Assembly (NCBI GenBank): GCA_965204535.1
Contig: CBDBEV010000001.1
Span: 576,001 to 640,000 of the forward strand
Direction of reading: 5' to 3'
DNA: 64,000 bases
Source of the DNA: a bacterium
GTDB taxonomy: Bacteria; UBA8248
Part shown: piece after piece, positions 20,081 through 55,192 of the stretch
Position numbering within the stretch: the first letter of the stretch is position 1
How the letters are laid out: the number at the start of each line of letters is the position of its first letter
The notes under the pieces: generated by a model
Told to the model about the DNA's origin: nothing
The model's input: the letters and a program-made list of their open reading frames with translations, nothing else
Database searches by the model: none
Made by a program: the position numbers and the translations under genes

Positions 20081-20270
20081 GCCGACATCATTAGCACATG
20101 TCGAATCGCGTTACCAGTCGCCCGGGAAAATTCTATCCGATGGAGGCGATGCGCCCGGCGCCGGGTCCATCACGGCCCGCCCGAACGCTTACTCGTGTCG
20201 AGTAAGCGTTCGGGCGGGCCGTGATGGTAGTGCCTTGAAGCAGTAGTTCGGGCCGGAATGGGGGATGATT

Positions 20271-21143: not shown

Positions 21144-21147
21144 GGCG

Positions 21148-24368: not shown

Positions 24369-25211
24369 ATGTATAACTTGCTTGTTCAGTATATGCCTTG
24401 GGAAGGTGGGAGGGGCACTATATTAACAAGTCGTCTATTTGAACACACCGACGATATACTTCAAGAACAATTCAAAGATGGCGATTTGGTTCTATTGGAC
24501 AAGCTGATTCAATTCCCGTGTTTGTTTATGCAGGAAGGCACGGAAGATGAGCTTGCGCATGTAGGAACAATCACACGTGCACGACGTTCTGGCACCGATA
24601 TTTTGATCGATTATCTCTTCGATCCAGATGTCGACCCAGTTCCTAACAAGGTCATTTTCGCGAATAAAGACGAGTTTGATATGCGAGAACGGTTTGAGTT
24701 CAGCAGAACACATTGGGCACTCAAGGATGTCGACTTGTTCCGCGTGCTCCTCCGACTTTCCCAACCTCTTCGCCAAAGCCCAAAGGTATTCTCGATATCC
24801 GAGAGTGAGATAATTGAGCGCACACTAGTATCCGTAATGATGCCGTTTGATTCGGGGTTTTCCGACGTCTACGAGGCGTTACAAGAAGCGGCGACAGCAG
24901 TTGGACTTCGGTGTCGTAGGGCAGATGAAATCTGGGAAAATCCTGCAATCATTCAAGATATAGTGACGCTAATAGACAAATCTTTTCTGGTGGTATGTGA
25001 CTGTACAAAGAGAAACCCAAACGTATTCTACGAAATCGGTATTGCCCACACTCTTGGGCGTGAGGTGGTTTTGATTACTCAAGCTCATGAAGACATCCCC
25101 TTTGATCTCCGCCATCTGCGCTATATCCATTATCTTAATAATGGTGAGGGGCGTCAGGCGCTCAAAGCGGCGCTCTGTGAACGTTTTAGCTTCCTTCAAG
25201 AAAACCTGTAA
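24369..25211 (+). CDS. protein with C-terminal nucleoside 2-deoxyribosyltransferase-like (TIR-like) domain; putative defence protein
   Basis: VMMPF, RADE, II.DI..LI, CDCT.RNPNVFYEIGIAH, IPFDLRH motifs; unknown 140-aa N-terminal domain. Confidence 0.75.
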   Translation: MYNLLVQYMPWEGGRGTILTSRLFEHTDDILQEQFKDGDLVLLDKLIQFPCLFMQEGTEDELAHVGTITRARRSGTDILIDYLFDPDVDPVPNKVIFANKDEFDMRERFEFSRTHWALKDVDLFRVLLRLSQPLRQSPKVFSISESEIIERTLVSVMMPFDSGFSDVYEALQEAATAVGLRCRRADEIWENPAIIQDIVTLIDKSFLVVCDCTKRNPNVFYEIGIAHTLGREVVLITQAHEDIPFDLRHLRYIHYLNNGEGRQALKAALCERFSFLQENL

Positions 25212-25633
25212 TCGTAGTCATTGCCCATAGTTGAGAAAATCGTTCGTCAGCGGGGTGATACTGCCAGATTTGGTGTATGTGCTGAATTGAAGAAGGCGGC
25301 GCATTCCTGCTGAAATGTAGTTTTGAAGAATTTTATTTCAGCGAGAGAGGAGACGCGCCATCATGGGCAAAGATACGATGGTTTGTTTTTCGAATTCAGT
25401 CTTTCGGGACAAACTCAGCGGACTGGTGCGCAACGGCACTCGGCGGGTCCAGATCGCCTCACAAGCGGTCATAGCGCGTCAACACCTAGGGGTAACACCG
25501 TCTTCGTATCGATCCAGATCGAGAATCTGAACCGTGGTATCGTCCAGCAAAAAGGACCTCCTTATCCTCTGACGCGTGCCGATTGGATCACACACATGAA
25601 TATTCAAGCAGATCAGTTGGTTGGCGACAAAAC

Positions 25634-26545
25634 TCAATCGCATAACCCCATCTGGATATTGAACCATTCCTGGTTTGTCATTCGACCAGCGCGGTAGAGG
25701 TAAGTTGCCTCCATCTTCTTTTTAACCTCCTCTTCTGATTTGCCGTGCACCGCTTCCAGCCTGACTTTTCGGGCCATCTCTGTCTTTGGGCGTGCATGGC
25801 AGTGCCAATCCTTCCCAGATATTTCCTCAGTATGGTCAATCATGAGCTCGTAGTCATCAAACTTGGGAAAGTTCTGGTCCGACGGACAGGGGTGCTTGAT
25901 CATTCCGGCAAAGGTCTGGAACCCACATTCGTAAGTCTCGACGCGGTCCCAATCCTTATCCGCGTCATCGACCGGGGCATCTATCTGCGTCGAAAGCATC
26001 GCTCCACAGTACGTACACTGATATTCTGCCACCTGCTCCCGAAGTTCTTCGATCTCGGCCTGGAGATCTTGTATCGCCTCACCACTCGTGATCCGTTCCA
26101 GTTCAGCACGTGGGTGTGCACGATAGATATCTGGTCGGACTGTCCTCAGGAGCATGATAGCGGCCTCTTGGGCACTGACCCGGCGGGTGTCAATCGCGAA
26201 TTTGTCCGAGAGTGAAGAGCTCAGCTGGACTACCTCGTGCTTGGTGACGCCATGCCAGATTGGCAAGATTTTGAGATCCTCCTCGACGTCACGATTAACC
26301 AGACCTCGGAGTTCATAATCGGGCCAAGCCTTGCCGATGAAAGCTCTGCTTATCACGACAATGCCGAATCTAGCGCCAGTTATTCCTTTGTCGATCTCGC
26401 GGGTGATGCTGTCGCCAACGTCCAAGGAGAATTCGTCATACCAGACCGACATCCCAAAATTTCGCAGCGCAGTCGCCAGTGAGCGGACAAACCCGTCCTT
26501 ATCTTCTGATGCGTGGCAAACGAATACATCGTAGTCTTGTGGCAT
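25634..26545 (-). CDS. TIR domain protein (TcpC-like) with Cys-rich C-terminal domain
   Basis: YDVFVCHASEDK, VWYDEFSL.VGDSI, W..YEL catalytic Glu, ILPIWH; CTYC, ECG and HPCP in the C-terminus. Confidence 0.88.
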   Translation of the reverse strand: MPQDYDVFVCHASEDKDGFVRSLATALRNFGMSVWYDEFSLDVGDSITREIDKGITGARFGIVVISRAFIGKAWPDYELRGLVNRDVEEDLKILPIWHGVTKHEVVQLSSSLSDKFAIDTRRVSAQEAAIMLLRTVRPDIYRAHPRAELERITSGEAIQDLQAEIEELREQVAEYQCTYCGAMLSTQIDAPVDDADKDWDRVETYECGFQTFAGMIKHPCPSDQNFPKFDDYELMIDHTEEISGKDWHCHARPKTEMARKVRLEAVHGKSEEEVKKKMEATYLYRAGRMTNQEWFNIQMGLCD

Positions 26546-26742
26546 CAGGTCGCTCCCTTCGACGTACCTATAGGCTTCCGAGGATGGTTTTAGCAGGTTT
26601 AGTACTTTGGGTCATTTCCGTTTCGGCGATGACCGGCTTGCAATGTGCTCTTACATGGCCGCGGATTTCGGGAGGGTATTCGATTCAATAGTTATGGGGA
26701 TGTCATACCGACAGGCCAGCCGAAAACCTACGAATCAAAGCA

Positions 26743-26955
26743 TCAACGGAATTTCACCTCGGTGCCATTCACCGCTTCCTTGGATTGTTTTCCTGCCTTG
26801 AAGCTTACGACCTTGCGAGCGCTGATGAGCGCTTCCTGACCCGTCTTCGGGTTGCGCCCCACGCGAGCGTTCTTCTTCCTCATCTGGAAGGAGCCGAAGC
26901 GCCTCAAGATGACGGACTCGCCACCCTTAAGTGATTCCTTGATGGTGTCGATGAT
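26743..26955 (-). pseudogene. 5'-truncated IHF/HU family DNA-binding protein
   Basis: Manual translation IIDTIKESLKGGESVILRRFGSFQMRKKNARVGRNPKTGQEALISARKVVSFKAGKQSKEAVN...; an in-frame stop lies just upstream with no start. Confidence 0.85.
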
Positions 26956-27060
26956 ACAGGGGGTTCAGGCGACCCCGCCGCGTGCAGTTCAGACGCAATC
27001 AGGCATCCTGTCCTACATTCGGCGGTAACTCCCAAACATTTGGAACACCTGAAATTCGTT

Positions 27061-27141
27061 TTGAATTTATTCAATTTACATGGTTTTCGACCATGCAAAT
27101 CATATATTGATGAAAACACCTTGAAAATATTTTGAAAATAT
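27061..27141 (+). promoter_or_regulatory. AT-rich promoter region with inverted repeats upstream of abiEi (possible autoregulatory operator)
   Basis: TTGAAT-TT-ATTCAA, CATGGT-N5-ACCATG and tandem TTGAAAATAT; AbiEi proteins are known to bind promoter IRs. Confidence 0.4.
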
Positions 27142-27150
27142 GAAATTTTA

Positions 27151-27999
27151 ATGGTTATGAGCCATCAAAGAACTCACAGACTGAAACCACTCCTGGACAA
27201 GGTCCCACCGGGCTTTATGGTCGATACGCCGTGGCTCAGGGCGCAGGGCATCGATCCCAAGTCCATCCACAACTACGTGGCTCGTGGATGGCTGGAGCGG
27301 ATCATCCGAGGGGTTTATCGCCGTCCTCTGCCCCAGGGCGTGCAGAGCTCTGCAGGGACATCCTGGGAGATATTCCTGCTCTCGCTGCAATGGGTCATGA
27401 AGCATGACGTTCATCTCGGAGGCGAGAGCGCGCTCGACCTCGCGGGCCATGCCCATTACGTCGGCCTCGGCGGTTTGCCGCGCGTTCATTTCTACGGCCA
27501 TGCGCCGCCATGGCTGAAACGATTGCCGACGCAGGCGAAGATCGTCATGCATCGCTCCGCGCTCTTCGGCGATGACCTAACCGGTGTCATCGACGCCGCT
27601 CATGATACCGAAGAGCCCGCCCGGGCAGTGAATGTCTGGCGGTGGCCCATAAAGGCCTCCTCGCCGGAGCGCGCCGTCCTCGAGGCGCTCGACGAACTGC
27701 CGAACCACGCGAGCTTCGACAACCTGGACAAAATCTTCGAAGGACTGACGACATTGCGGCCGCGGCAATTGATGACACTGCTCACGCTCTGCCGAAGCGT
27801 TAAAGTCCGGCGGCTGTTTTTCGTCTTCGCGGACAGGCACCGACATCCATGGCGCAAGCACCTGAACACCTCGAGGGTTGGCTTCGGTTCGGGGCCGCGA
27901 GCCTTGGTCAAGGGCGGCCGACTTCATCCGACCCATCGGATCTATGTACCCGAGGACTTTGCTTCTGTGAACAGGGACGAGGCAGGCACCGATGCATGA
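27151..27999 (+). CDS. abiEi: type IV TA antitoxin AbiEi
   Basis: GWLERI.RGVY, SAL.L.GHAHY, SSPERAVLE.L, C.SVKVRRLF motifs; overlaps the toxin gene. Confidence 0.9.
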   Translation: MVMSHQRTHRLKPLLDKVPPGFMVDTPWLRAQGIDPKSIHNYVARGWLERIIRGVYRRPLPQGVQSSAGTSWEIFLLSLQWVMKHDVHLGGESALDLAGHAHYVGLGGLPRVHFYGHAPPWLKRLPTQAKIVMHRSALFGDDLTGVIDAAHDTEEPARAVNVWRWPIKASSPERAVLEALDELPNHASFDNLDKIFEGLTTLRPRQLMTLLTLCRSVKVRRLFFVFADRHRHPWRKHLNTSRVGFGSGPRALVKGGRLHPTHRIYVPEDFASVNRDEAGTDA

Positions 28000-28906
28000 G
28001 CGCTATGTACATCGGGTTCGGCTGCTGCTGAGCGTCCTGCCGCATATCGCGCGGGAGAACGTGTTCGCGCTCAAGGGCGGTACTGCCATCAACCTGTTCT
28101 ACCGGGACATGCCGCGGCTCTCCGTCGATATTGACCTCACCTACTTGCCGGTGGATAACCGCGAGAAATCGCTCAAGGATATCGACGAGACGCTTGAGCG
28201 GATTATGGCGTCGGTCACTGCTCGCAACCCAAGCCTGGAGGTGAGGCGCATCCCAGGCGGTGGCAACATCGATACACGGATCATGGTCGGTGACGGCCAG
28301 GCGCAGACAAAAATCGAAACCTCACCTGTAACGCGCGGGTCGGTGCATCCGCCATTGCTGATGACGGCATCGGACACCGTGACGGAGCGATTCGGCTTCG
28401 TCGAGGTGAATGTCCTCGCATTTGAGGACCTCTACGGCGGCAAGCTGCATGCGGCGCTCGACCGCCAGCACCCGCGCGACCTCTTCGATGTCAAACTTCT
28501 TTACGAGAACGAAGGCCTCACCGACGAATTGTTCCGCGCGTTCATGGTCTATGTGGCGAGTTCAAGTCGACCGGTGCATGAACTGCTGGCGCCGGGCGCT
28601 CCCTTCCAGGACGAGTTGTACGACGAAGAGTTCGTGGGAATGACGCGAGAAGCCGTGACCAAAGAGGCGCTCATCGAAACGCGCGCGCGCCTGCACACCG
28701 ACATCAGAGAACGGTTGACGGGAGACATTGCGGCCTTCCTGCTTTCGCTCCAGGATGCAGAACCCGACTTCGACCTGATAAACCTTTCCACAGCGGTGGA
28801 CCTTCCTGCGGTTCGCTGGAAGTTGCTCAACCTCGAGAAGCTCAAAGATGAGAACCCTGAAAAGCATGCGGCGCAAAGGGGCATGCTCGAAGACCTGTTT
28901 CACTAA
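27992..28906 (+). CDS. abiEii: type IV TA nucleotidyltransferase toxin AbiEii
   Basis: FALKGGTAINLF, RLSVDIDL, KL.AALDRQHPRDLFD. Confidence 0.93.
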   Translation: MHERYVHRVRLLLSVLPHIARENVFALKGGTAINLFYRDMPRLSVDIDLTYLPVDNREKSLKDIDETLERIMASVTARNPSLEVRRIPGGGNIDTRIMVGDGQAQTKIETSPVTRGSVHPPLLMTASDTVTERFGFVEVNVLAFEDLYGGKLHAALDRQHPRDLFDVKLLYENEGLTDELFRAFMVYVASSSRPVHELLAPGAPFQDELYDEEFVGMTREAVTKEALIETRARLHTDIRERLTGDIAAFLLSLQDAEPDFDLINLSTAVDLPAVRWKLLNLEKLKDENPEKHAAQRGMLEDLFH

Positions 28907-29595: not shown

Positions 29596-30630
29596 ATGAT
29601 AGAAAATCATAAAATGCTGAATGTCGAAGCGATCTCTTTCGACACCGAAAACCCCAGAATAAAGATGGCACTGGAGAAGTATGGAGATCAGCTAAATGCT
29701 GAGCGCATACATTTTGCTTTGCGTTCGGCTACAGATGGTACAAGAGGGACTTCCTCTTATGCTTCTCTTAGAGATTCAATACTCACAAGTCGTGGGGTGA
29801 TATCTCCGATTACGGTCATTATTCAAAACGGCGAATATGTTTGTATCGACGGAAACACTCGTCTTGCTATCTACAAACAATTTCTCAGAGAAAATGTAGA
29901 GGGGACTTGGGCCGAGATCAAAGCAATTGTATTGGACCGTGCGGACCAACGGGACATTGAGACAATACGCGTATCAGCACATCTGGTTGGCTCCAGAGAA
30001 TGGCCCGCCTACGAAAAGGCGAGGTATCTTCATTATCTACGCAATAGTAGATTTATGGATTACAATGAAATGATAGCACTTTGTGGCGGCAACAAACTCC
30101 ACATAGAACGCGAGATTGATGCTTATCATGACATGAACGAATATTATCGTGATGTAGTTGACGACACGGCATTTCATATTGATAGGTTTAGCGGATTTCG
30201 TGAATTGCAAAAACCGAGGATCAAGGAAGCCATTTTCGAAGCCGGCCTGGAATTGAAGGATTTTGGGGAATGGATTCGCGACGGAAAAATATACAGGTTG
30301 GAAGATGTACGAGACTTACCAACTGTTCTTCGTGACGATGAAGCAAAAGAAATATTTCTTACTGGCGGTCCTCACTCCATAGAAGCGGCGGTCAAATTAC
30401 TTGATCAAAAGGCAGAAAAAGAATCCGGTCAAACAGACGCTGAGATTACACTGGAATCTGCATCTATATTTCAACTAGCGGAGATTCTTTCGCGTCGTAT
30501 CTATGATTTGCCTTATTCTGAAGTGCGGGCGCTAAAAAATAGGGAGCATGACGACGTTGCAGAACAGATAGACACTTTAGAGGGTTTGTCAGCACGTTTA
30601 CAAAGTTTGCTTGAAGATGTCTCAGAGTGA
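29596..30630 (+). CDS. ParB/Srx-like N-terminal domain protein 1
   Basis: FDTENPRI, PI.V, CIDGNTRLA, W.AYEKA motifs. Confidence 0.8.
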   Translation: MIENHKMLNVEAISFDTENPRIKMALEKYGDQLNAERIHFALRSATDGTRGTSSYASLRDSILTSRGVISPITVIIQNGEYVCIDGNTRLAIYKQFLRENVEGTWAEIKAIVLDRADQRDIETIRVSAHLVGSREWPAYEKARYLHYLRNSRFMDYNEMIALCGGNKLHIEREIDAYHDMNEYYRDVVDDTAFHIDRFSGFRELQKPRIKEAIFEAGLELKDFGEWIRDGKIYRLEDVRDLPTVLRDDEAKEIFLTGGPHSIEAAVKLLDQKAEKESGQTDAEITLESASIFQLAEILSRRIYDLPYSEVRALKNREHDDVAEQIDTLEGLSARLQSLLEDVSE

Positions 30631-31060
30631 GCAACACAGAAATTTGGTAATTGAGGTAGTGAAAGCGCTTGAGGCCCGGTGTCCGTTAATGTCGATTATT
30701 GTTGACGTGCAACAGAAGCCTGGCGACGAAGTGCCTCCGCTAATTAATGGCTTCCGCCCGGATGTGTATGCTCGGAAAGATACCGATAATTCTGTCGTTA
30801 TTGCTGAAGCCAAGACCGATAACGACCTCAAGAATAAACATACCGATAACCAAGTAGAGTCTTTTATTTACTATCTTGAGCGAAGAAGAGATGGTTTTTT
30901 CATCCTGTCTGTAACAGGCTGCGGAGCTGATCGCGCCAAGACCTTATTACGGTTTGTGCGTCAGGAAATGCATATAACCAGAACAACCATTGCTGTATTC
31001 GACGGCTGTGACTTTTGGTTGCTGGATTCAAGCGACGGTGTGACATGGCATTTAAGCTAA
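30617..31060 (+). CDS. small PD-(D/E)xK nuclease-fold protein
   Basis: GFRPDVYA...VIAEAKT motif; overlaps both neighbours. Confidence 0.65.
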   Translation: MSQSEQHRNLVIEVVKALEARCPLMSIIVDVQQKPGDEVPPLINGFRPDVYARKDTDNSVVIAEAKTDNDLKNKHTDNQVESFIYYLERRRDGFFILSVTGCGADRAKTLLRFVRQEMHITRTTIAVFDGCDFWLLDSSDGVTWHLS

Positions 31061-32511
31061 GAAAACCCCCAAAACTAAGCTCTAGACATGACGCTTACCC
31101 ATATCAGCTCGATGCGGTCAGGGCGGTGGAATCTCTGCCCTACGCCGCGATATTTCATGAACAGGGGCTGGGCAAGACAAAGATCGCAATTGATCTCATG
31201 TTAGGGTGGCTAACTGAAGATGTCGTCGATACAGTGTTTGTCATTACGAAAAAGACATTGGTTCAAAATTGGGTCGATGAACTGGCGTCTCATTCGCATC
31301 TTACGCCGAGAATTCTGTCGGGTAACCGCCGAGAAAACAGCATTGCTCTGAACTCACCTGTATTGGTCTACATCATGAACTACGAGGTTATATCAACAAA
31401 CCTTGATCTCATTCGCGAGTTCCTTGGCACCTGCCGAGTGGGAGCAATCCTGGACGAAAGCCAGAAGATCAAGAATCCAGAATCAAACCTATCGGCCTGT
31501 TTTCATTCCATAGCCGACAAATTTGAGCGCCGCATCATCATGACTGGTACTCCTGTAGCTAATCGTCCTTATGACATTTGGTCACAGATCAAGTTTCTGG
31601 ATGATGGCAAATCACTTGGGGCCTCGTTTCCCGAATTTAAGACTGCGCTCGATTTGCCGCTCAAATCTTCCTCGGTGTCAGGGTATGGACCGCGGCTAGC
31701 TGATGTTATGGGCAAAATCAAGCATTTCTCAATACGCGATACGAAACGAACAGCAGGGATCGAACTTCCTGACAAAACCATTCTGACTCATTTAGTCGAA
31801 TTGGCGCCTCGCCAGTCAGCAATTTATGCTTTGTACAGAAACGAACTGAGATACGAGTTTCAAGGCGATAGCGGTCTAGTCATTGATGACGCTGAAGACA
31901 TTTTGAAACGCCTTTTGCGCTTGGTTCAGTGCGCCTCGAATCCGGCCCTCCTTGATGAAGCCTACAATGAACTTCCTACGAAATTTTCGAAACTAGTTGA
32001 GTTATTCCACGATATTGAGGTTCAATCGAACAAAGCAATTATCTGGACCGGATTTATTAAAAATGTCGAATGGTTGAGCGGTAAACTAGCTCATCTCATG
32101 CCACAAAAAGTGCATGGGAACATGTCTGTTGCCGACCGAAACGAGTCAATTAAAATATTCAAGATAGACAGCGACTGCAGAATTTTAGTGGCTACACCCG
32201 GGTCGGCAAAAGAAGGGTTGACCTTGACGGTTGCCAACCACGCGATATTTTATGATCGTGGATTCAGCCTTGATGATTACCTACAAGCACAGGACCGTAT
32301 ACACAGAATTTCTCAAACGGAAAACTGCTTCATACACAATCTAATTGCCAAGGACACAATTGATGAGTGGGTGGATGCGCTACTAAATGCCAAGTACCAA
32401 GCTGCTCAATTGGCACAGGGAGATATATCACATGAAGAGTTTGATGCGATATTTACATGTGACCTCTCAGAAGCATTGAAACAAATATTATCTCCCGAAG
32501 GGCATTTGTAA
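31045..32511 (+). CDS. minimal SNF2/SWI2-family SF2 helicase-translocase
   Basis: YQ, EQGLGKT, LDESQKIKN, MTGTP..N, EGLTL, QAQDRIHRISQ. Confidence 0.92.
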   Translation: MAFKLRKPPKLSSRHDAYPYQLDAVRAVESLPYAAIFHEQGLGKTKIAIDLMLGWLTEDVVDTVFVITKKTLVQNWVDELASHSHLTPRILSGNRRENSIALNSPVLVYIMNYEVISTNLDLIREFLGTCRVGAILDESQKIKNPESNLSACFHSIADKFERRIIMTGTPVANRPYDIWSQIKFLDDGKSLGASFPEFKTALDLPLKSSSVSGYGPRLADVMGKIKHFSIRDTKRTAGIELPDKTILTHLVELAPRQSAIYALYRNELRYEFQGDSGLVIDDAEDILKRLLRLVQCASNPALLDEAYNELPTKFSKLVELFHDIEVQSNKAIIWTGFIKNVEWLSGKLAHLMPQKVHGNMSVADRNESIKIFKIDSDCRILVATPGSAKEGLTLTVANHAIFYDRGFSLDDYLQAQDRIHRISQTENCFIHNLIAKDTIDEWVDALLNAKYQAAQLAQGDISHEEFDAIFTCDLSEALKQILSPEGHL

Positions 32512-32530
32512 TGTGTAAAGGAGAAATTAT

Positions 32531-33541
32531 ATGGAAAAAAGAAAGATAAAGCTGCTGCGTGAAGAAATTCCTCTAAGCAGCGATTTTGAGGATATACATA
32601 GTCTCAAATTCCTGAAAGACAATCCTAGGGTATACGCTTGTACACATGGGCATCCTAACTTTGAAAACCTGATGGAGGAAGAGCAACAAGACATTATTTT
32701 AGAAAAACTCCTTCAGGAACCCAGCGTCAAAAATCTGATTCCTGACGTCAAGCGGCACGGTGGGCTTATGGAGTCGATATTGATCCGCAAGGATACAATG
32801 GAAGTCATAGAAGGCAATTCCCGATTAGCCGTTTATCGAAAATTATATGATGATGAGGTGGCAGGTGATTGGGAACTTATTCCTTGTGACATAGTAAGCA
32901 ACCTCACAGAAGACCAACAGGCAGCCTTCTTAAATCAGATTCATGTCAAAGGCAAAACACAGTGGTCACCCTATGAACAGGCCAATTTCGCCTATGTGCG
33001 TAAGGCTCAAGGATGGCGCTTCGACAAGATCGCAGATCTGTTTGGGGAGTCGGAGGTAACAATACGCACTAGAGTTAGAATTATTCAGATGATGAAGGAC
33101 AACGAAGATAGCCAACAGCCTCATTTCAGTTTTTATGACGTTATAGTTCGTAAACCGGAAATTTCAAAGGCAATAAATGACGATGCAAATCTCCGCGGCT
33201 GCCTCATGGTAAAAATTAAAAATTTTGATACAGGGGAGGAGGGCAACGAGTTTACGGCACAAGACCTGAGAAATAAGCTCCCGGCACTTCTGAAGAAACC
33301 CAAAGTGCTAAAAAAGTTTATTGTCGGCGAGATTGATCTGGATGAGGGATATCAACGTGCCAAGATCAGCCAAGTAGAAGAGAGAGTAAGAAAGGCGGTG
33401 GCTCTTCTTGATGATGTCGAGCACAATGATATTTCACAACTGGAGCAAGTCCGTTTTAACGCGTTCAAGCAAGATGTCCGGAAACTGGCGCAGAGAGTTG
33501 ACAGAATAAATCGGATGATAACAGGTATTGGTGCAAAATGA
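32531..33541 (+). CDS. ParB/Srx-like N-terminal domain protein 2
   Basis: LKDNPRV, GGL.ESI, VIEGNSRLA, H..GK..WSPYEQA, following HTH-like segment. Confidence 0.8.
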   Translation: MEKRKIKLLREEIPLSSDFEDIHSLKFLKDNPRVYACTHGHPNFENLMEEEQQDIILEKLLQEPSVKNLIPDVKRHGGLMESILIRKDTMEVIEGNSRLAVYRKLYDDEVAGDWELIPCDIVSNLTEDQQAAFLNQIHVKGKTQWSPYEQANFAYVRKAQGWRFDKIADLFGESEVTIRTRVRIIQMMKDNEDSQQPHFSFYDVIVRKPEISKAINDDANLRGCLMVKIKNFDTGEEGNEFTAQDLRNKLPALLKKPKVLKKFIVGEIDLDEGYQRAKISQVEERVRKAVALLDDVEHNDISQLEQVRFNAFKQDVRKLAQRVDRINRMITGIGAK

Positions 33542-35193
33542 CTGCAAGAAACGTCCTACTGATCGAGCCGGGCTACCCCAATAAGTACCCGCCTCTCGGC
33601 TTAATGAAGCTGGCCGCATACCACGGCCCCCAAGGACGTGGAGACCGTGTTTGTTTCATCAAGGGCGAAGTAAAGGATGTGCTGGATGAACCATGGGACC
33701 GTGTCTATGTCACAACCTTGTTCAGCTTCGAATGGGCGCGTACGGCGCGGGCCATAGACTTCGCGCTTAAGGCGTCAGGCAACCAGCCTGAGCGAGTGTT
33801 CGTCGGTGGCATCGCGGCCTCGCTCATGCGCGACGAATTTGTGAAGGAGCCGCGCTGGGCGGGCGTCCGGTTCATCCAGGGTTTGCTCGACGGAGCGCCG
33901 GCCCAAGCGCTTGAATTATCACTAGATAATTGTGACTTCGGCGCCGATGACTTGACCGGAACACCGATTGAAGAATTAGTCCCTGACTACGGCATCCTCG
34001 ACCAGACAGACTATACATACCCTGTCCATGATGCGTATTTTGGTTACGCCTCTCGCGGTTGCGTACGCAAGTGCGCCTTCTGTGGAGTGCCCAAACTGGA
34101 AGGCGACCAGCGCGAAATGCCACCGCTTACGAATCTCGTCAACGGAATCGATAAGGCGTATGGGCCGAAAAAAGATCTCGTATTGATGGATAACAACATC
34201 ACGGCGTCCGCGCGCTACAAGGAGGTGATCGCCGAAATCCGCGACCTCGGTTTCACGCCTGGGGCGAAGTTTGAGCGAGACGGACTTCAATCGCTGAAGC
34301 GCCGCGTCGATTTCAATCAAGGGGTCGATGCCCGCATTCTAGTCAAATCACCAATGTTTCTGCGGGAGATGTCCACAATTTGCATCAGTCCTCTTCGTAT
34401 CGCCTTCGACCACATCGGTGTGCGCAAGGTCTATGAAGCCTCGGTCCGCATGGCCGTGGACAACAGAATCACTTCAATGTCCAACTACATGCTCTACAAC
34501 TTCATGGACACGCCGGAGGACCTGTACGAGAGGATGCGGCTTAATATCGCTCTCAACGAAGAGTTGGGAATCCGTCTTTGGTCATTTCCGATGCGTTACC
34601 AGCCCGTTACGCTTAAAGACCGCTCTCACGTGGGAATAAACTGGAATCGATACTATCTGCGCTCGTTCCAGATCATGCTGCAGGCGACTCGTGGAATCAT
34701 CAGCGGCAACCCCCCCTTCTTCATGCGAGCCTATGGTCAGGACAAGCGGGCTTTCAAACAGTTGTTGAGCCTTCCGCATGTGTTCATTTTCCATCGTGAT
34801 TATTACGAGAACGGGCCTGGGCGTGCGGTACGAGATGAATACGAGGGATTGCGCCGTCGACTCTCCGAAAGCCAGGAACAAGAACTAATCCATTATCTTT
34901 CCGGTCCGGTCGAAGCGAAAGGGCTGCGACGGGAACATTATCGGCGGCTGGTCACAGATCGGAGTGTTGATCCTCTTATTCGAAAAATTGTCCCCTTCCA
35001 TATTTTGGACACTAAAGACACTCCAGGTATGGAAACCAGTAAACTTCTGCCGCTTTTCCCGGAGTTGAACCCTAACCCCGTCATGCCTGAAAAGGACGAG
35101 GTCGTTGAAGACGCCGGTTTGTTCGACCATGAACATATTCTGAATGGGAAGGAAAAAGTCGTTCTGCCTGTCATGGACCAGCAGACAGGTTGA
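33538..35193 (+). CDS. radical SAM enzyme with B12-binding-like N-terminal domain
   Basis: LLIEP...YPPLGLMKLAAY, VFVGG..AS, SRGCVRKCAFC (CxxxCxxC), MDNN, VDFNQGVDAR; ATGA overlap with the upstream gene. Confidence 0.9.
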   Translation: MTARNVLLIEPGYPNKYPPLGLMKLAAYHGPQGRGDRVCFIKGEVKDVLDEPWDRVYVTTLFSFEWARTARAIDFALKASGNQPERVFVGGIAASLMRDEFVKEPRWAGVRFIQGLLDGAPAQALELSLDNCDFGADDLTGTPIEELVPDYGILDQTDYTYPVHDAYFGYASRGCVRKCAFCGVPKLEGDQREMPPLTNLVNGIDKAYGPKKDLVLMDNNITASARYKEVIAEIRDLGFTPGAKFERDGLQSLKRRVDFNQGVDARILVKSPMFLREMSTICISPLRIAFDHIGVRKVYEASVRMAVDNRITSMSNYMLYNFMDTPEDLYERMRLNIALNEELGIRLWSFPMRYQPVTLKDRSHVGINWNRYYLRSFQIMLQATRGIISGNPPFFMRAYGQDKRAFKQLLSLPHVFIFHRDYYENGPGRAVRDEYEGLRRRLSESQEQELIHYLSGPVEAKGLRREHYRRLVTDRSVDPLIRKIVPFHILDTKDTPGMETSKLLPLFPELNPNPVMPEKDEVVEDAGLFDHEHILNGKEKVVLPVMDQQTG

Positions 35194-35234
35194 GAGCGGT
35201 GAATTGAGAATTGAATTGCTTGGGGAGAAAAGAC

Positions 35235-36713
35235 ATGCTAGACGCGAACGCGCCGGAAGCATTGATCGGCGGCGATATTTTGAACCTCATCACCGTCGGC
35301 ATGTACGACAATCCACTGGCCATTTACCGGGAATACATCCAAAACGCGGCAGACGCCATCTCGAACGCTGAAAGTCTTAGGGACGGTAAAGTCGAAATCA
35401 ACATCGACCCATCTGGGTTGAGCGTAAGGATTCGTGATAACGGCCCGGGACTTTCTCACGAAGCGGCGCTTCGAGCGCTGTTACCTATTGCCAGAAGCCA
35501 GAAACAGCGGGGAACCGACAGCGGATTTCGGGGTATAGGTCGGTTGTCGGGATTGGCCTTCGCGGAGTCGGTTACCTTTAGAACACGAGATCAAGACGAT
35601 AAACCAGTTACTTGTATCATATGGGATGGACCCAAACTCCGTAACGCTATCGCCAAGGCCACAAAAACAGAGAGTGCGATCCGGGAATGTATTACCTTAG
35701 AAACTTTGTCTGCAGAGAAATATCCCGCTCATTTTTTCGAGGTCGAAGTTGGCGGGATTGGACGACACGCAGCAGGACTTTTACTCAATACGGAAGCCGT
35801 ACAGGCTTACATAGGCGAAGTCTGCCCAGTACCTATCGGTCCATCTTTCCCTTTCACTTCGGAGATCAATAATTTATTTAGAAAAGATAAAGCGACTCTA
35901 GATCTGGAAGTCACACTTAACGACGAACTCACTCCTGTGACACGACGATACGGAGAGGTAATTCGATTCTCTAAAGACAGAGAGGATCGATTTATTGAAT
36001 TTGAAGAAGTAGACATCTCCTCCGCAGATGGAAACGATATGGCCGCTGTAGGCTGGGTTGCGCATTCCTCCTATCTCGGCGCAATCCCGAAAGAACTCGG
36101 CATTCGAGGCATCCGGGCTCGTGCGGGAAACATTCAGATTGGTGATGAGAACGTGTTTGAGCATCTATTTCCTGAGGAGCGGTTTAACCGCTGGTGCGTC
36201 GGTGAGATTCACATAATGGACTCTCGTATTGTTCCGAACGGGCGACGTGACTACTTTGAGCTGGGACCACACACCAGAAACCTAGAAAATCAAATGGCTG
36301 CTGTCGCCCGTCGAATTTCGGCAAGATGTCGAACAGCGTCTACGGCACGCAATAAAGAGTACAAATTTCAGACTGAACTAGCTCAAATGGAAGAAACTTA
36401 TGATCTCGCAGTTTCAGGGTATCTATCCGCCGAAAACGCGAAGGCACTGATCGGGCAAGCATTGGATCGTATTCAGGGCATTCGGGAAAGCCTCGACACG
36501 ATGAACAGTCACGTGAGAGAAAACCTTGAGAAATTGTATGTCCTGGAGAGGAAGTTGAGCAGCTTCCGCGTTCGGCGTGGTCGTCCCCCTATGGGAAGTG
36601 TTTCAGCGTCTGAGGTCGCAACCTACAGAAAAATCTTCCAAACCTTGGCGGAGGCATCACCATCGCCACGCGCCGCAAAGGAAATGATAGAAGCCGTCTT
36701 GGCGAATGCTTAG
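35235..36713 (+). CDS. GHKL (HSP90/MORC-like) ATPase
   Basis: REYIQNAAD, DNGPG, GFRGIGRLSG, GNIQIG, VGEIH, PNGRRD. Confidence 0.88.
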   Translation: MLDANAPEALIGGDILNLITVGMYDNPLAIYREYIQNAADAISNAESLRDGKVEINIDPSGLSVRIRDNGPGLSHEAALRALLPIARSQKQRGTDSGFRGIGRLSGLAFAESVTFRTRDQDDKPVTCIIWDGPKLRNAIAKATKTESAIRECITLETLSAEKYPAHFFEVEVGGIGRHAAGLLLNTEAVQAYIGEVCPVPIGPSFPFTSEINNLFRKDKATLDLEVTLNDELTPVTRRYGEVIRFSKDREDRFIEFEEVDISSADGNDMAAVGWVAHSSYLGAIPKELGIRGIRARAGNIQIGDENVFEHLFPEERFNRWCVGEIHIMDSRIVPNGRRDYFELGPHTRNLENQMAAVARRISARCRTASTARNKEYKFQTELAQMEETYDLAVSGYLSAENAKALIGQALDRIQGIRESLDTMNSHVRENLEKLYVLERKLSSFRVRRGRPPMGSVSASEVATYRKIFQTLAEASPSPRAAKEMIEAVLANA

Positions 36714-37110
36714 CTCAGGCGGAGTGCAATCCATCGAAGAATATTGCGACAGGGGCTTGGAGGAAACTAAATTGAACAAAACATCCCGCTTGAGATTATC
36801 AAGGCAGTGCCGTTCAGGGGCGGGAGTAAACAAATCTAACTCGCCGCCTGACACTACCATCATAAACTTTTGGGCATAGCTCGCCCTTGTTCTAACAAAA
36901 TCTCTACCTAACACAAATAGCCGATGACCTCCTCTGGTTTGCAGCGCTTCATCTCTATCGGTAGTTCTTGTCTCCCCCCATAACCTGAAGATAACCTAAT
37001 CCACTAGGAATGAGTCGAGATTAGCATTTACGCTCTGTCAATTCCTAACTACCCTCCGTTACTTTATCTCCAAACTATTTACGGGTTTTTGCTTCGACAT
37101 TCTGTGTATC

Positions 37111-38694
37111 CTAAGTTCCCCTCTCAAAGCGATGTACTAGACTTGCCTTGATCTTCTGGTATGCGTCGGGGTCTACAAAGGCATTAATAACATCCAGAAC
37201 CTCCTTGAGAAGCTGCTCTCTCAATCGTGCCTTGAGGCCTTCTAGAAGTTCACTTTCATCAAGCACCTGACCCATCATCAACCGTGCCTTTTCTTCAACT
37301 GTTTTTATATCATCCGCCGCCTCCAGCAAAGAGGCGGCTCTCTGTTTTATACTTTCTCCTTCCTCTATCGTTGCTTCATCCAAATCACCAACAACTTTCT
37401 GAAGTCGTGCTATCTTTCTTCGATGCCGCTTAGCATTGTTCATCAAATCAACAATTTGGTCGTAATTCGTGCGAGGGCCTTTTCCCAGAGTATCCGCCCT
37501 TAACAGCACCTTCCTTACATCTTCGATTACCTTATCGATATCCTGACCACCTTGTTTTGATGCTTCGTACGCATCAGCGGAAAGCGGTTTGCAAACGTTG
37601 ACACACAAACTTTCCTGAATTCCAACCCAGTCTTCAAGCTCTTCAAACCCATCGCGACGAGCATTTGGAATAACCCTTTTCGGGTCAATATAGATTTCGC
37701 CAACATAATAGCTGCTAAAGCGGCTATATGATGGTTTCAGATCCGAAAACAACCTTTCAACAATTTGTGTACCGTCAACTTGAATATTGCGAACACGAAT
37801 TCGTAGTCCTCTTGTATTTCTATCGGTAACTGCTGCCGACTCGCTGAGCCGTCCCACCCAAGCCCAATACCACCCCTCTTCTCCAAGAAAATAGTCTATC
37901 TCTTGCAGGTTCATCGTTCCTTTTGCGTGCTCATATTCTTCGCCATAAGGCTTCACCACTTCCTTTTTTTGGGCATCATGCTCGATCCACACGTCAACTG
38001 TCTCCAAGGCTCTTCCGAAATACTGTTCGTAATTTTTCTGGATATCAGCACTTCTGACCCAGCTTGGATCAAGCTTCACGGGAACCGTTTGGCATAGATA
38101 AGAATATATCTCTTTTGGTCTTCTCAGCGAATCGGGGGCATTCGACAATCCTTCCAAAGTGACCTCGAAGAAATGATCGTCTAAACAACTTTCAACTTCT
38201 TGCTTCTGGAAATCTAATGCATTCATTAGCAACTTTGCCAATTCGAACTCACCACCTCTATCTGGATCCATTGCTCGCAATAAATTCTTACAGTCAAATT
38301 GAATTGTACTTATGGAAGTTTCACCTGGAAAAGTTGTTCGAAATGTAAGCTTGTCACAATACGCCATTCCCGCGAGGCGTCCAATTCCACGAAAGCCTGC
38401 ATCCCGCTCTCGGTCCTTTTTAGAAGCGCCAATCGAAGTAAGCGTTCTCCACGCTTGATTTACCGAAATGCCAAGACCGTTGTCCTTTATAATAAGCGCG
38501 TCTTCTTTCACTTTTACGGCGACACAACCTCTCTCTTCCAGAATTCCCATTCGTTGCGCAGCTCTAATGGAGTCGAATGAGTTTTGAATATATTCTCTAA
38601 GAGTGTGTCGCGGTTCACCATACATGCCTAGCGTTAGAGTTTCTAGAACAAAGGCTCCTATATGAGGCGCAGGATTAGTCGCAGCAGTTTTCAT
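37111..38694 (-). CDS. GHKL (HSP90/MORC-like) ATPase, paralogue of 35235-36713, with coiled-coil tail
   Basis: REYIQNSFD, DNGLG, GFRGIGRLAG, RNIQV, VGEIY, PNARRD. Confidence 0.88.
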   Translation of the reverse strand: MKTAATNPAPHIGAFVLETLTLGMYGEPRHTLREYIQNSFDSIRAAQRMGILEERGCVAVKVKEDALIIKDNGLGISVNQAWRTLTSIGASKKDRERDAGFRGIGRLAGMAYCDKLTFRTTFPGETSISTIQFDCKNLLRAMDPDRGGEFELAKLLMNALDFQKQEVESCLDDHFFEVTLEGLSNAPDSLRRPKEIYSYLCQTVPVKLDPSWVRSADIQKNYEQYFGRALETVDVWIEHDAQKKEVVKPYGEEYEHAKGTMNLQEIDYFLGEEGWYWAWVGRLSESAAVTDRNTRGLRIRVRNIQVDGTQIVERLFSDLKPSYSRFSSYYVGEIYIDPKRVIPNARRDGFEELEDWVGIQESLCVNVCKPLSADAYEASKQGGQDIDKVIEDVRKVLLRADTLGKGPRTNYDQIVDLMNNAKRHRRKIARLQKVVGDLDEATIEEGESIKQRAASLLEAADDIKTVEEKARLMMGQVLDESELLEGLKARLREQLLKEVLDVINAFVDPDAYQKIKASLVHRFERGT

Positions 38695-38716
38695 ATTTTA
38701 GGTCACCTCCTTCTTT

Positions 38717-40588
38717 TTAGCCACAATCATCCTCCTCAAAGTCTGTATCGGAACTTAACCCGCCCGTAGAAAATGCATCCAACCGGACCAAACCAGTGTC
38801 CGCAGACCACTTGTACATTCCTTCGTCATATTCTTCAGTTAGAAGATCGACCGGAATGGCGAATTCATCTCCAATAAGACTGCGAAGTGTTGTTCCAGAA
38901 CATTCATTTCGGACTACGTTACTAAGTAGTGACCTCAATCTCCTGGGATTTGTCTCATGCAAATTCTCGGCTAATGCTTGATGGCCTCCAATGCGAATTT
39001 CAGTAAGTAATAGTGGCTTGCCCTTCTGTCCTTTAAGTGTGTTTAAGGTATAAGGTACCTTCGCACGCTCGCCGCTAGGCAAATATGGTAGCATTGCCCC
39101 TTCATCCATCAGATATTGATTTAGTGCTTGAAACGCTTCGTCTAACCAAGACTCTTTTTCGAGGGCAAACACTGTAGGCAGGAGAGACCTCTTAGGCATG
39201 GTTAGCAACTCTCCCTGCCTAGAAAAATAGGCGGATGTGATCAGACCCAAAACTACTCTGTTTACTCCAAGGGGGTCACTATCCTGTCGTAATCGTTCAA
39301 AAATATCCGGGCTATCTATCAACCACTGGTCTGATCTGTTTAGTATCAGTTCGGCGAGTAGCCTTCCTAGTTGAAATGGATCAAGAATACCCGACTTGAC
39401 TTTGGACAACCAGGTATCCATTTGGTGCGACTTTTCATCAACACTTCCTCTCAGATAGGTGTTCAACTCCGTAGAAATTGTCATCAACATTAATTGCGCA
39501 AGCGAGGGAGGGTCCAAACGATTCACTACCGCAGGTTTACCAATTGCTACATCTTCACTAGGGCTATCCCCATTGGAGTCGCTATCTGAATGTTCAGTGA
39601 CCGGATGTTCGAGAGTCTGATCTTCCACTTTGTCTGCAACGTGGCTGTGCACGTATAAGGCCGTTCGCAATGTAGAGAAAATGCTCTTTTCCCCTGCCAC
39701 ACTTGCTACGTGCTCGTCCGCTAGGACCAAAAAGCGGGGGTGAAGTACCAATATATTGCCTTGCTCTCGCTGAGCAGTTAGCTCATGCACCAGCAGTGGG
39801 TGCGGGCGAACAACATCATACCCGCTATCTTTGTTTGGTTTTTCTTTTACTGACCTTTTTCCTTTTACAAAAGAAGCGGTTGAAACCCAATCCGTTTTTT
39901 CATCACAAGATAGCAGAACAAAATTCATATTGTCGCATGTTCCATGCTTGGAAGGGAGGTCTGCAATAATTTCTTCCCAGATCACCACGTCACCGTAACG
40001 ATTGATTTCTTTCTTGTCCTTATAGCCTGGTGGAACTAGGTGGCTGTATCGGAATTCCCCAGTTTCTTGAAGACGTGCGATGATAGGGTTAAGATTGCTT
40101 CTGAGCACATTTTCGTTAACAAAGGAAATAATTTCTTCAATTGCGTCACTAAGGTATCTATCATCTCTAGTCACATTGATTAAATTTCGCACCCTCGAAA
40201 ATGAGTGTCTAATCTCAGTGACATAACTATCTCGATTAGAGTAACCACGTTCTTTGCAAATTTCATCATCAGCTCTTTCGAGTGCGAGAACCATGAAATC
40301 ATGGATTTTCTTTTCTAAATCCGAGGAAATTTTCCGAATGTCATTTCTAGTGCTCTCCTGAACAATATGACGATGAAATTCATGAGCCGCCCAAACCGGA
40401 ACACGAATAGAACCTTCCGTCCTAGTATTACACCAACCTATAAATTCCTTCCGAGCAGTCACACCTAGCCGGACCAGAAGCATCAGCAATGAAGTATCCA
40501 AGTAATAGATTGTATTGTTTGACTGAAACGTTTCGGCTACCTCATCCATGAACTCATCATAGTCCCGAATGAATGGATCTAATTTCAT
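38717..40588 (-). CDS. PIN-like (DUF4935-type) nuclease domain protein with large unknown C-terminal region
   Basis: YLDTS, VP.W..HEF, PPGYKD, YGD.VIW.EI, SCDEK.DW. Confidence 0.8.
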   Translation of the reverse strand: MKLDPFIRDYDEFMDEVAETFQSNNTIYYLDTSLLMLLVRLGVTARKEFIGWCNTRTEGSIRVPVWAAHEFHRHIVQESTRNDIRKISSDLEKKIHDFMVLALERADDEICKERGYSNRDSYVTEIRHSFSRVRNLINVTRDDRYLSDAIEEIISFVNENVLRSNLNPIIARLQETGEFRYSHLVPPGYKDKKEINRYGDVVIWEEIIADLPSKHGTCDNMNFVLLSCDEKTDWVSTASFVKGKRSVKEKPNKDSGYDVVRPHPLLVHELTAQREQGNILVLHPRFLVLADEHVASVAGEKSIFSTLRTALYVHSHVADKVEDQTLEHPVTEHSDSDSNGDSPSEDVAIGKPAVVNRLDPPSLAQLMLMTISTELNTYLRGSVDEKSHQMDTWLSKVKSGILDPFQLGRLLAELILNRSDQWLIDSPDIFERLRQDSDPLGVNRVVLGLITSAYFSRQGELLTMPKRSLLPTVFALEKESWLDEAFQALNQYLMDEGAMLPYLPSGERAKVPYTLNTLKGQKGKPLLLTEIRIGGHQALAENLHETNPRRLRSLLSNVVRNECSGTTLRSLIGDEFAIPVDLLTEEYDEGMYKWSADTGLVRLDAFSTGGLSSDTDFEEDDCG

Positions 40589-41709
40589 CTAACACTCCAG
40601 CATTTAGTCACACTTAGTAATATTTGATAAGGAGAATTGTTGCGCACTAGAAACGGTAGATGAGGGAAAAAGAGCATAACCTCTCAACACAACTCGCAAA
40701 TGCGAAAACGAAAAACATAAACTTATCATGCCGCTTTTATGTAATATTCATTTTGATTGTGCTTGGTCTAATTATTCCCGTTCTGCAACTTGTGGTCATT
40801 GTGCACACTCGACAACCACGCAACCCCTTGATGTTTTATCCATTCCAGCGGCCACAAGCCAGCAGTCGAGAAAGAGTCCATTATCACTTGTAAGCGATTA
40901 ACTTTAATATACTGGCCTCCGAGAGGCGTATTTGGATTTTGACAACCCCATTTCAGCAGGATGCGCCGCCTTCTTCAATTCAGCCCATACACAAGACCTG
41001 AGTGTAACTCCGTATTTGTCACATTCTATCACAGTACTGGTCAAGGAACTGCCAACCTGCTCACCGCATCACTAAGTGTCCTGCCGAGTTATAGAGTAGG
41101 CATCTTTGACGCAGTGACCGAGACGGAATCACCCGTGTAGAAGTGTCGACCGGCATGGGTTTGCCTACTTATCAACCGGAACGCCCCGAAGCAAGCGAGT
41201 GAACCATGCTAGCTACCACATGCCATGCGAGCACATCATGGTTGGTTCGCCCTATTCCTAGTATCGGGCAGGCGTTAATAAAGGCAAACTGTGGAATGTG
41301 CCGCCAAACTGTGTGCGCGGTCTGTCCGGCATATGACGCATCAAGACAGGCACAGCTTAGGAGGTGGCGTCGGCGATGTGTGCGGCGACCAGTTTATGGC
41401 TGTGAGATTGAATGACAAGTTTATCCAGCACCTCGGAGGCGGACTGAGCGGCGAATATGGTTTCTAATACTGCGCGAAAAACGTGCACGGTGGCATAGCG
41501 AAGCGCCCAGACGGTTTTTATTGTAGGCTTCGACAGTGCTTGGAAAAGAGTTCTTTAAGATGATCAACGACGGCGTAAAGCGAGTCGAGCAACTCTGGAA
41601 CTTCGCTAAATTGGTCGCGGCTAACGGCGGTTCGCGCTTCCTTAGTGGACCTATTGCGTCAGAGCCGTGCACGAATTCAAAGTTCGTCGCCGACGCAACG
41701 CGAGTGAAT

Positions 41710-42018
41710 TTATCCAGTATATCCGAGTTTACCTGACAATTCCGGCGCGACCTCGGAGATATTCCTGCTGATTTGATCTATCTCTTCATCTCGTCCGTCC
41801 CTTTCCATGTCGCGGATGATGGCCTGCGCGGTGAACATCGCCGACCGCAACAGGTGGATTTCCGTCTCCGTGCGGGGCCATTCGCGGCGCTCCAGAGCTT
41901 CCATCACACACTCTACCACCAGTCGGTTGGGCGACATTTCGCGCTTTTCGGCCTCACTTTCAATTCGTTTCCACTGTTCCGGCGTGACTCTGATGTTCTT
42001 CTGTATCGTCTGAACCAT
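41710..42018 (-). CDS. ribbon-helix-helix protein, probable relaxosome accessory factor
   Basis: QKNIRVTPEQWKRIE.EA....SPNRLV RHH pattern; AGGAG RBS; adjacent to the oriT candidate. Confidence 0.65.
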   Translation of the reverse strand: MVQTIQKNIRVTPEQWKRIESEAEKREMSPNRLVVECVMEALERREWPRTETEIHLLRSAMFTAQAIIRDMERDGRDEEIDQISRNISEVAPELSGKLGYTG

Positions 42019-54718: not shown

Positions 54719-55192
54719 TCAGAAACCGAGAAACCGGACCCGCGCCCGGCCCCCGGTAACGGTGCAGTCGGGCGCGCCGTCCGGGCGGCGGCGGATCGTC
54801 ACGAGCGGCTTGTTGCGGGGCGGGTGGGGCGGATCGGATAGCTCGCTCGTGATCGTGGCGCCGGGTGTCTCGAAGCGGAGCAGGACCCGCCCCCGGGACA
54901 CCTCGACGGCGCCGCCGCCCGGCCGGCCGGGGTCGGTCAGGGTGATGACCGGCGGCTCGCCCCGCTCGGTGAACCGGTCGGGGACCGGCCATTCCGCGTC
55001 CGGGTCCCGGGAATCGGCGCCCTCCCGGACGTCGTCCACGAACACCCTGCGGCAACGTACGTCCGCCCCCCGGTCCGCATGGGCTTTCTCGACGGCCTTT
55101 TCCAGCGCCTCCTCCAGGGTCTCCGCCTCCACGGTGAACGGATCGGTGAAGCGGGCCGCGTATCCGCACCGGACGGTCCAGGTCTTTTTCAT
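54719..55192 (-). CDS. hypothetical protein
   Basis: ATGA overlap with the upstream gene; VEAETLEEALEKA motif. Confidence 0.55.
   Translation of the reverse strand: MKKTWTVRCGYAARFTDPFTVEAETLEEALEKAVEKAHADRGADVRCRRVFVDDVREGADSRDPDAEWPVPDRFTERGEPPVITLTDPGRPGGGAVEVSRGRVLLRFETPGATITSELSDPPHPPRNKPLVTIRRRPDGAPDCTVTGGRARVRFLGF

Follow-up and report, generated by a model that had tools for sequence, protein, structure and literature searches.

A PIN_8 nuclease-GHKL ATPase pair as an optional companion of a radical-SAM core in a probable anti-phage family

The stretch of DNA analysed here (the window: 64,000 nucleotides, positions 576,001 to 640,000 of contig CBDBEV010000001.1, assembly GCA_965204535.1, a bacterium of GTDB lineage UBA8248) carries, between 35235 and 40588, two convergent genes for paralogous GHKL ATPases. 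One of them, GHKL1, follows a radical S-adenosylmethionine (rSAM) enzyme at the end of a six-gene run; the other, GHKL2, lies behind a gene for a predicted nuclease of the PIN_8 family. We find that the PIN-GHKL2 pair is not free-standing: it is linked to the rSAM-GHKL1 core, it is optional for such cores, and it has been swapped between them. The family that these genes define is real, conserved and unnamed in the literature and libraries covered, it is carried as mobile defence cargo, and its catalytic residues are conserved. A role in defence is very probable. With about even confidence, we regard PIN-GHKL2 as an exchangeable arm of a likely anti-phage family, an arm that would depend on a conserved product of the rSAM core.

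The features on which the argument rests are the following.

33538..35193, + strand: radical-SAM enzyme, 551 aa, with a CxxxCxxC motif; the constant core gene of the family
35235..36713, + strand: GHKL1, 492 aa, core ATPase paralogous to GHKL2; HATPase_c_3
36714..37110, no strand: 397-bp gap separating the convergent ATPase genes; marks the left border of an exchangeable slot (about 36731-41725)
37111..38694, - strand: GHKL2, 527 aa, GHKL ATPase leaning to Hsp90, with an S5-type domain and a helical bundle; HATPase_c_3
38717..40588, - strand: predicted PIN_8 nuclease, 623 aa; Pfam PF18476, E 1e-23

Linkage of the PIN-GHKL2 arm to the rSAM core

An earlier, sequence-only reading of the window had offered two explanations for the pair, namely a separate two-gene abortive module or the backup arm of an eight-gene system. 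Neither matches the distribution of the genes exactly. An alignment of GHKL2 (54 of 120 listed homologues) led to 61 genome loci, 56 of them with an rSAM gene and 27 with a PIN gene. In 25 of the 27 PIN loci the rSAM gene lies within 11 kb, whereas a background of 400 sampled genomes from one alphaproteobacterial order, with three candidates scored per genome, held the GHKL family in 2 and matched the PIN profile in none, the seed genome aside; a separate two-gene module is thus unlikely. The 25 loci show four layouts (10 divergent, 5 convergent, 6 on the same strand with rSAM first and 4 on the same strand with rSAM after); the tail-to-tail arrangement is thus not conserved, and we discarded it as meaningful in itself. 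The two PIN loci without rSAM are L003, a contig of 2.2 kb, and L014, where a complete genome has the pair in broken form, and three of the four GHKL2-type loci that lack rSAM are truncated or frameshifted (L010, L014, L114). Among the neighbours of the PIN pair no other family recurs as rSAM does. GHKL1 is present in 24 of the 25 visible cores beside PIN arms, and a short DndB/DpdB-like DGQHR gene precedes rSAM in 25 of 36 PIN loci.

Plasmids give the same picture. Among 72,556 of them, rSAM occurs in 12 records, all of which also have the GHKL family; the sole extra GHKL record is a fragment. Nine of the 12 regions were examined, the remaining three being repeat records of the same strains: seven, among them two near-identical cassettes, hold an intact arm adjoining the core, one has a truncated PIN gene and no GHKL2, and in one the arm lies about 88 kb off between IS66 copies. 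A plasmid search seeded with PIN returned 13 records, and 3 of these are not among the rSAM carriers. In viral contigs no PIN arm was found.

The cores themselves often lack the PIN arm and carry other nuclease arms, for which reason a fixed eight-gene system was rejected. An rSAM-seeded metagenome search yielded 40 loci, of which 33 (28 distinct) have an adjoining GHKL1 and none of these a PIN gene within flanks that are in many cases short. Both cores met in unbiased genome draws are without PIN, and one of them has the same six-gene run as the window (L118). A 14.5-kb contig from a sponge metagenome run follows the window at about 93% over 33549-36730, then differs from it for 4,300 letters and meets it again at 41726, the rejoining side comprising just 139 letters in a multi-copy region. 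Moreover, the four genes upstream of rSAM in the window form a second optional arm, found in 11 of the 27 PIN loci. The co-occurrence that the earlier reading had called for therefore holds for the two-gene rSAM-GHKL1 core and not for the whole six-gene operon. The second arm reads as follows.

29596..33541, + strand: second optional arm (SNF2/ParB), four genes
29596-30630, + strand: ParB-like, by PHROG match
30611-31060, + strand: small protein whose family consensus, inspected by eye, shows a PD-(D/E)xK-like pattern
31015-32511, + strand: SNF2 helicase, Pfam E 4e-26
32531-33541, + strand: ParB-like, by PHROG match

Other arms take the place of PIN-GHKL2 elsewhere. One consists of a NurA-like gene (identified by its similarity to a phage gene that carries an exonuclease annotation), HerA (PDB 7f6d, E 5e-46) and an ATPase of a third GHKL clade (GHKL3); another, seen in Bacteroidota and often in tandem with the HerA arm (11 loci), combines a pair resembling Menshen NsnB/NsnC with a fourth clade (GHKL4). 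These two arms thus have GHKL paralogues of their own. The ParB/small/SNF2/ParB cassette and a long DGQHR-HEPN protein also occur beside rSAM. PIN and NurA-HerA arms share none of their loci (36 and 28, repeats included), and a viral collection holds two loci with NurA-HerA-GHKL-rSAM.

Co-evolution of the four genes mirrors this modularity. In the 28 loci that have all of them, tree distances correlate strongly within pairs (rho 0.85 for PIN-GHKL2 and 0.84 for rSAM-GHKL1) and weakly across pairs (0.22-0.33); the two pairs have 10 and 8 well-supported splits in common internally, against 1 between pairs. Pruning to 23 loci, which removed the window and four near-duplicates, leaves 0.79 and 0.80 within pairs and 0.09-0.21 across. 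High correlation within pairs and low correlation across them imply that arms have moved from core to core without losing their place beside one.

Several variants of these layouts were seen in passing. In the Bacteroidota loci L048-L062, seven-gene runs hold two tandem arms, each ending in its own GHKL, followed by a 660-aa rSAM with insertions; at L062 the NurA-HerA-GHKL and NsnB/NsnC-like-GHKL arms stand in reverse order. Marinitoga camini virus 1 (L115:5998-9824) has a short rSAM relative convergent with HerA and a NurA-like gene and no GHKL within the part of the virus examined, which suggests that a link between rSAM and NurA-HerA may exist without the ATPase. A more distant GHKL gene, with weak REase_II/MzaB/TmtA matches, directly follows GHKL1 on its 3' side in two loci (L070:13467-15113, L007:13200-15074) and is possibly another arm.

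The predicted nuclease, the two ATPases and the core enzyme

The Pfam match to PIN_8 scores 84.9 bits against a gathering threshold of 26.1 and covers residues 29-238. The protein comprises a VapC-like PIN domain (about 20-310), a disordered linker (315-354), a helical-repeat segment (about 365-510) and a beta-rich end (about 510-610). Residues D31, E70, D200 and D229 are invariant among 83 aligned relatives, and a profile search found 337 representatives at E <= 1e-30. In the structure model (predicted local distance difference test, pLDDT, 88) the top fold match is a VapC (Z 8.5, root mean square deviation (rmsd) 3.8, 133 aligned), and the helical-repeat segment gives weak fold matches with Z about 7. 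Foldseek returned no match to the whole model at E <= 0.001, PDB sequence searches with the PIN alignment and with rSAM gave nothing significant, and an atlas search with the C-terminal part of a PIN homologue gave no usable match. PIN_8 has been placed in the VapC group and listed as of 'function unknown' (PMC5499597).

The architecture read from the letters stands. Open reading frame (ORF) calls give two intact ATPases facing each other tail to tail, with stops 397 bp apart, and place GHKL2 22 bp downstream of the 623-aa PIN gene; an AGGAGGT ribosome site lies within those 22 bp. The likely start of GHKL1 is the ATG at 35235 behind a GGAG, the ORF tool opening the frame at a TTG at 35211. 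A scan of the 397-bp gap for promoters and terminators remained at chance level. Every motif that had been listed as shared is present in both ATPases, but the spacing from GMY to REYIQN is 7 residues and not 4. Likewise, the similarity claimed to extend along their length holds for the ATPase and S5-type domains and fails for the C-terminal part: 111 of 358 residues are identical (31%, BLASTP E 2e-44), and the match stops near residue 350, leaving about 150 C-terminal residues unaligned (profile probability 2%). The GHKL superfamily motifs (ExxxNxxD, DxGxG, GxxGxG) lie within the ATP-binding fold of the ATPases. All four motifs examined are kept in 29 of 29 PIN-linked GHKL2 relatives, and each is kept in 50-58 of 59 GHKL1 sequences. 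With their catalytic residues and motifs preserved, the predicted nuclease and GHKL2 look active.

The GHKL2 model (pLDDT 83) leans to Hsp90 without being HtpG. The matches listed by Foldseek are all Hsp90-family, and in the fold ranking GRP94 (Z 19.7, rmsd 3.9, 294 aligned) comes before SMCHD1 (17.1), TRAP1 (17.0), MORC3 (16.2) and MutL (15.4). The GRP94 alignment spans model residues 11-379, that is, the N domain and first middle subdomain in the arrangement of Hsp90; SMCHD1, MORC3 and MutL align over residues 13-380, where GHKL and S5 domains are present. Past residue 354 the model consists of helices alone, forming a helical bundle. As a whole protein GHKL2 falls far below the Hsp90 families (40-42 bits for PRK14083 against a cut-off of 455; 23 against 371 for the HtpG model). 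We base the assignment on this combination, Hsp90-family matches coming first over 11-380 and a helical-bundle end. An atlas search with a GHKL2 homologue returned HATPase clusters only.

Trees cluster the GHKL sequences by their upstream partner. In a quick IQ-TREE run on 56 sampled rows, 17 of 17 GHKL1 sequences form one group (98 in the Shimodaira-Hasegawa-like approximate likelihood ratio test, SH-aLRT) and 14 of 15 PIN-linked sequences another (support 99). GHKL2 appears as sister to the HerA-linked GHKL3 (FastTree 0.996; mean identity 35% vs 30%; C-terminal profile match 98%). Because the deep forks stay open in the IQ-TREE run and the C-terminal part of GHKL1 likewise matches GHKL3 (96%), we claim no order of events for the clades. 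A recent local duplication giving rise to GHKL1 and GHKL2 was rejected in view of their 31% identity and separate clades. A 511-aa metagenome protein (P0108) contains both a receiver/guanylate-cyclase part and one that resembles GHKL2, and may be either a chimera or a real fusion.

The core enzyme matches Radical_SAM at E 0.0025, below the Pfam cut-off, and phrog_9298 at E 7e-37; it is very conserved, being 55-60% identical across Proteobacteria. Its N-terminal segment presumably resembles cobalamin-binding rSAM methylases. An acidic, VEDAG-like motif at its C-terminus (about 35080-35130) appears in the consensus of rSAMs that precede GHKL1 and is absent from the HerA-only and Bacteroidota types; it is a candidate contact with GHKL1.

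A possible mechanism and its alternatives

How might an exchangeable pair depend on a core with which it hardly co-evolves? An arm that needs a core yet accepts any member of the family is most easily understood as depending on a shared product of the rSAM enzyme or on a conserved surface of it. We envision a scenario in which the product of the rSAM enzyme's chemistry is conserved and most likely marks nucleic acid, and in which PIN, the predicted RNase, is held off by GHKL2 as its dedicated switch, powered by ATP; infection would disturb the rSAM product, upon which GHKL2 would release PIN. The gate is modelled on the ATPase gating described for PARIS. Direct contact and gating between PIN and GHKL2 are somewhat more probable than not. 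RNA as the target of PIN, with growth arrest of the infected cell, is a slightly weaker expectation and represents the default for a protein whose family falls in the VapC group. As to the nature of the product, we lean to a nucleic-acid mark over a soluble signal, because DNases predominate among the predictions for the other arms and the DGQHR genes relate to DndB/DpdB, and we hold the two to be about evenly balanced. The family also suggests a rule of one partner and one private ATPase (rSAM-GHKL1, PIN-GHKL2, NurA-HerA-GHKL3, NsnB/NsnC-like-GHKL4). A bolder version, which we consider doubtful, is an undescribed class of immunity in which the rSAM enzyme writes a self mark, or an alarm molecule, of a new kind and each enzyme of the system, writer or weapon, has its own Hsp90-like ATPase; arms would fit any core by reading a shared chemistry instead of a cognate protein.

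A number of observations weigh against this reading. A PIN RNase has no obvious way of reading a DNA mark, and the window itself lacks the short DGQHR gene. L003 carries the pair on its 2.2-kb contig from an incomplete genome in which rSAM was not found, and broken arms also adjoin cores (L016, L107). On a P. luteola plasmid a PIN relative, 23% identical over 95% of its length, stands with no adjoining ATPase, and two shorter PIN matches on plasmids likewise fall outside the rSAM set. Many of the metagenome cores have short flanks, with 4 kb downstream in 13 of the 28 distinct loci and long flanks on both sides in 5, and the mutual exclusion of PIN and NurA-HerA is partly taxonomic. Finally, adjacency alone can yield co-evolution within pairs, which therefore does not prove binding.

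Alternatively, each GHKL protein might be an Hsp90-like maturation factor that folds or loads its neighbour and is no switch at all; the C-terminal domains of PIN would then sense the core product or a phage molecule, and PIN may cut DNA or RNA. The fold, nearest to GRP94, TRAP1 and HtpG, speaks for such a private chaperone, as do an HSP90 family model being the best NCBIfam match, the tracking of one upstream partner by each GHKL clade and the 260-residue conserved extra region of PIN. On the other hand, SMCHD1, MORC3 and MutL follow closely in the ranking, the Hsp90 match gives way to a helical bundle near residue 380, and that NCBIfam match reaches 40 of the 455 bits required. We judge this alternative unlikely. 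Less likely still is the guarding role proposed by the sequence-only reading, whereby GHKL2 pairs with or watches GHKL1 and frees PIN once a phage inhibitor strikes GHKL1. PIN arms do occur only with GHKL1-bearing cores, as far as these are visible, and backup RNases are known companions of modification systems (PMC12839542, PMC10853773). Guarding would, however, predict matched GHKL1-GHKL2 pairs, and the two trees are largely incongruent, with 1 shared split, 11 of 13 conflicting, and a rho of 0.22 that falls to 0.09 after pruning, a value reached in 171 of 999 permutations. The sister cores L110 and L111 bear different arm lineages, and the unaligned C-terminal domains are the usual dimerisation site of such ATPases. 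That the PIN-GHKL2 and rSAM-GHKL1 pairs hardly co-evolve together argues against guarding through cognate contact; a variant in which GHKL2 is a decoy for the inhibitor would do without any contact to GHKL1.

Two further alternatives appear improbable to us, the second marginally more so. The pair might be an independent abortive module that lies near the rSAM core merely through the clustering of defence genes. It has its own orientation, a guanine-plus-cytosine (GC) content of 44-45% and is swapped freely; the IS66-flanked copy far from its core shows that it moves as a unit, and the distant PIN stands alone. Yet the arm adjoins a single rare partner at nearly all loci, as no other neighbour family does, and pairs without a core are mostly broken. 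Or else core and arms might stabilise a conjugative element or exclude rival plasmids, a role in addiction or competition that fits their carriage on conjugative elements and plasmids, often adjoining toxin-antitoxin genes and integrases, and the lack of PIN arms in viral contigs. Against this, large multi-nuclease arms with helicases and Menshen-like parts typify defence, AbiE and TIR genes adjoin, and the two roles can coexist.

The pattern of swapping points to a shared chemical product, which may be sought in cultured, non-pathogenic carriers such as Novosphingobium aromaticivorans (pNL1), Rhizobium leguminosarum WSM1325 and Mesorhizobium NZP2077. A nucleic-acid mark would amount to a new chemistry of self and non-self; were the ATPases partner-specific switches or chaperones, immunity would be employing the Hsp90-like fold in a new way. 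Candidate operons that had been scattered now fall together into a single family, its radical-SAM core constant and its nuclease arms exchangeable, and PIN_8 gains a defined partner and context.

Relation to known systems and genomic setting

In its organisation the system is of the modular core-plus-effector type of defence, with an ATPase-nuclease backup arm, and it falls outside every named system tried. Among the closest are the prokaryotic MORC/paraMORC operons, which resemble restriction-modification systems and where the sections available of PMC2292703 describe GHKL + S5 ATPases near SF2/SNF2 helicases and nucleases, some neighbourhoods having two different GHKL families, and do not mention rSAM or PIN partners. 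Here, in contrast, rSAM is the constant gene, and neither the recurring neighbour families nor the eight window genes (the six-gene run, PIN and GHKL2) include a DNA methylase or a C-terminal nuclease or TIR domain fused to the ATPase. PARIS, an AriA ABC ATPase with an AriB TOPRIM nuclease, shares the ATPase-nuclease pair and a proposed ATPase-gated release (10.64898/2026.09.30.754977, in the part seen), and backup effectors at BREX and Dnd loci are similarly placed beside a larger system, as excerpts of PMC12839542 and PMC10853773 have it. Our pair differs from PARIS in its GHKL ATPase, its PIN_8 nuclease, its near-obligate link to a core and the paralogous core ATPase, and PADLOC gave no AriA/AriB match for it. 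Dnd and Dpd resemble the family in coupling a core to exchangeable nuclease modules and, for the 25 of 36 PIN loci that have them, in DndB/DpdB-like DGQHR genes, and duplicated ATPase pairs in opposite orientation are described among them (PMC10853773, in part); the core here is without DndA/C/D/E or DpdA/C, none of which matched the window genes or the recurring neighbours scanned, and the window is without the short DGQHR gene.

Ophion is a validated anti-phage system with an rSAM enzyme, whose partners, according to the available text, are PHP and PRTase with no GHKL or PIN (10.1101/2025.09.30.679545); here no rSAM with PHP and PRTase genes was found. A three-gene neighbourhood of PAACC, HSP90 and radical-SAM genes (10.64898/2026.10.19.760177) also sets HSP90-like and rSAM genes beside a predicted effector; the effector is a cyclase, and the passages seen describe no PIN arm or paralogous ATPases. 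Possibly this is the same core with another arm. VapBC shares the VapC-group PIN fold with its predicted active site (PMC5499597, as far as available); here the protein has 623 aa with extra domains, a 527-aa downstream ATPase replaces the small antitoxin, and no ORF of at least 80 aa lies directly upstream of PIN on its strand. Tiamat is one large protein with GHKL, DUF3684 and a PD-(D/E)xK nuclease, the ATPases here having 492-527 aa; their TmtA matches in PADLOC are weak (E 6e-5 to 2e-4) and confined to the ATP-binding part. PADLOC has no model matching the rSAM or PIN genes and yields weak ATP-site matches alone for the ATPases, and all eight genes stay below the curated NCBIfam cut-offs. 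Searches of open-licence PMC and bioRxiv texts found none that describes an rSAM-GHKL core combined with a PIN-GHKL arm; subscription papers, supplements or defence catalogues newer than PADLOC 2023 may list it.

The window holds an F-type conjugative element of about 69% GC, with TraW/U/N/G, a coupling protein and a TrwC relaxase. From about 24 to 41 kb it holds a cargo block of 44-54% GC that contains a TIR gene, AbiEi/AbiEii, the six-gene run on the + strand (ParB-like, small protein, SNF2 helicase, ParB-like, radical-SAM enzyme, GHKL1) and the opposing PIN_8-GHKL2. GHKL1 and GHKL2 are the sole two members of their family in the source genome, and rSAM was found in none of 50 other genomes of the same class, from which we take the block to be acquired. 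Its 5' part is as follows.

24369-28906: defence cargo preceding the operon; 280-aa gene that PADLOC matches weakly as 'Effector', a TIR gene (PDC-S66-like, E 8e-57) and AbiEi/AbiEii

An assembly artefact was rejected on account of one short-read contig (run X2) that spans 34486-40979 with 0 differences; as the run is probably of the source sample, this is a check on the assembly and not independent evidence. No RNA run was listed as holding the stretch. A contig joint connects window positions 28000 and 40961 on opposite strands, with a side of 32 letters, and the stretch 40937-41010, found again in other runs, is possibly a short repeat bounding the cargo. Past the relaxase, 16849-23502 holds an insertion with an IS66-family transposase gene (784 aa), present twice in tandem as identical copies, and a DruA-like gene (290 aa). 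On its far side the element carries a third HATPase_c gene of 590 aa, seemingly unrelated to GHKL1 and GHKL2 (55189-56961, - strand), as well as a ThsB-like TIR gene (PADLOC E 2e-120) with a UDG-superfamily gene (60027-62383).

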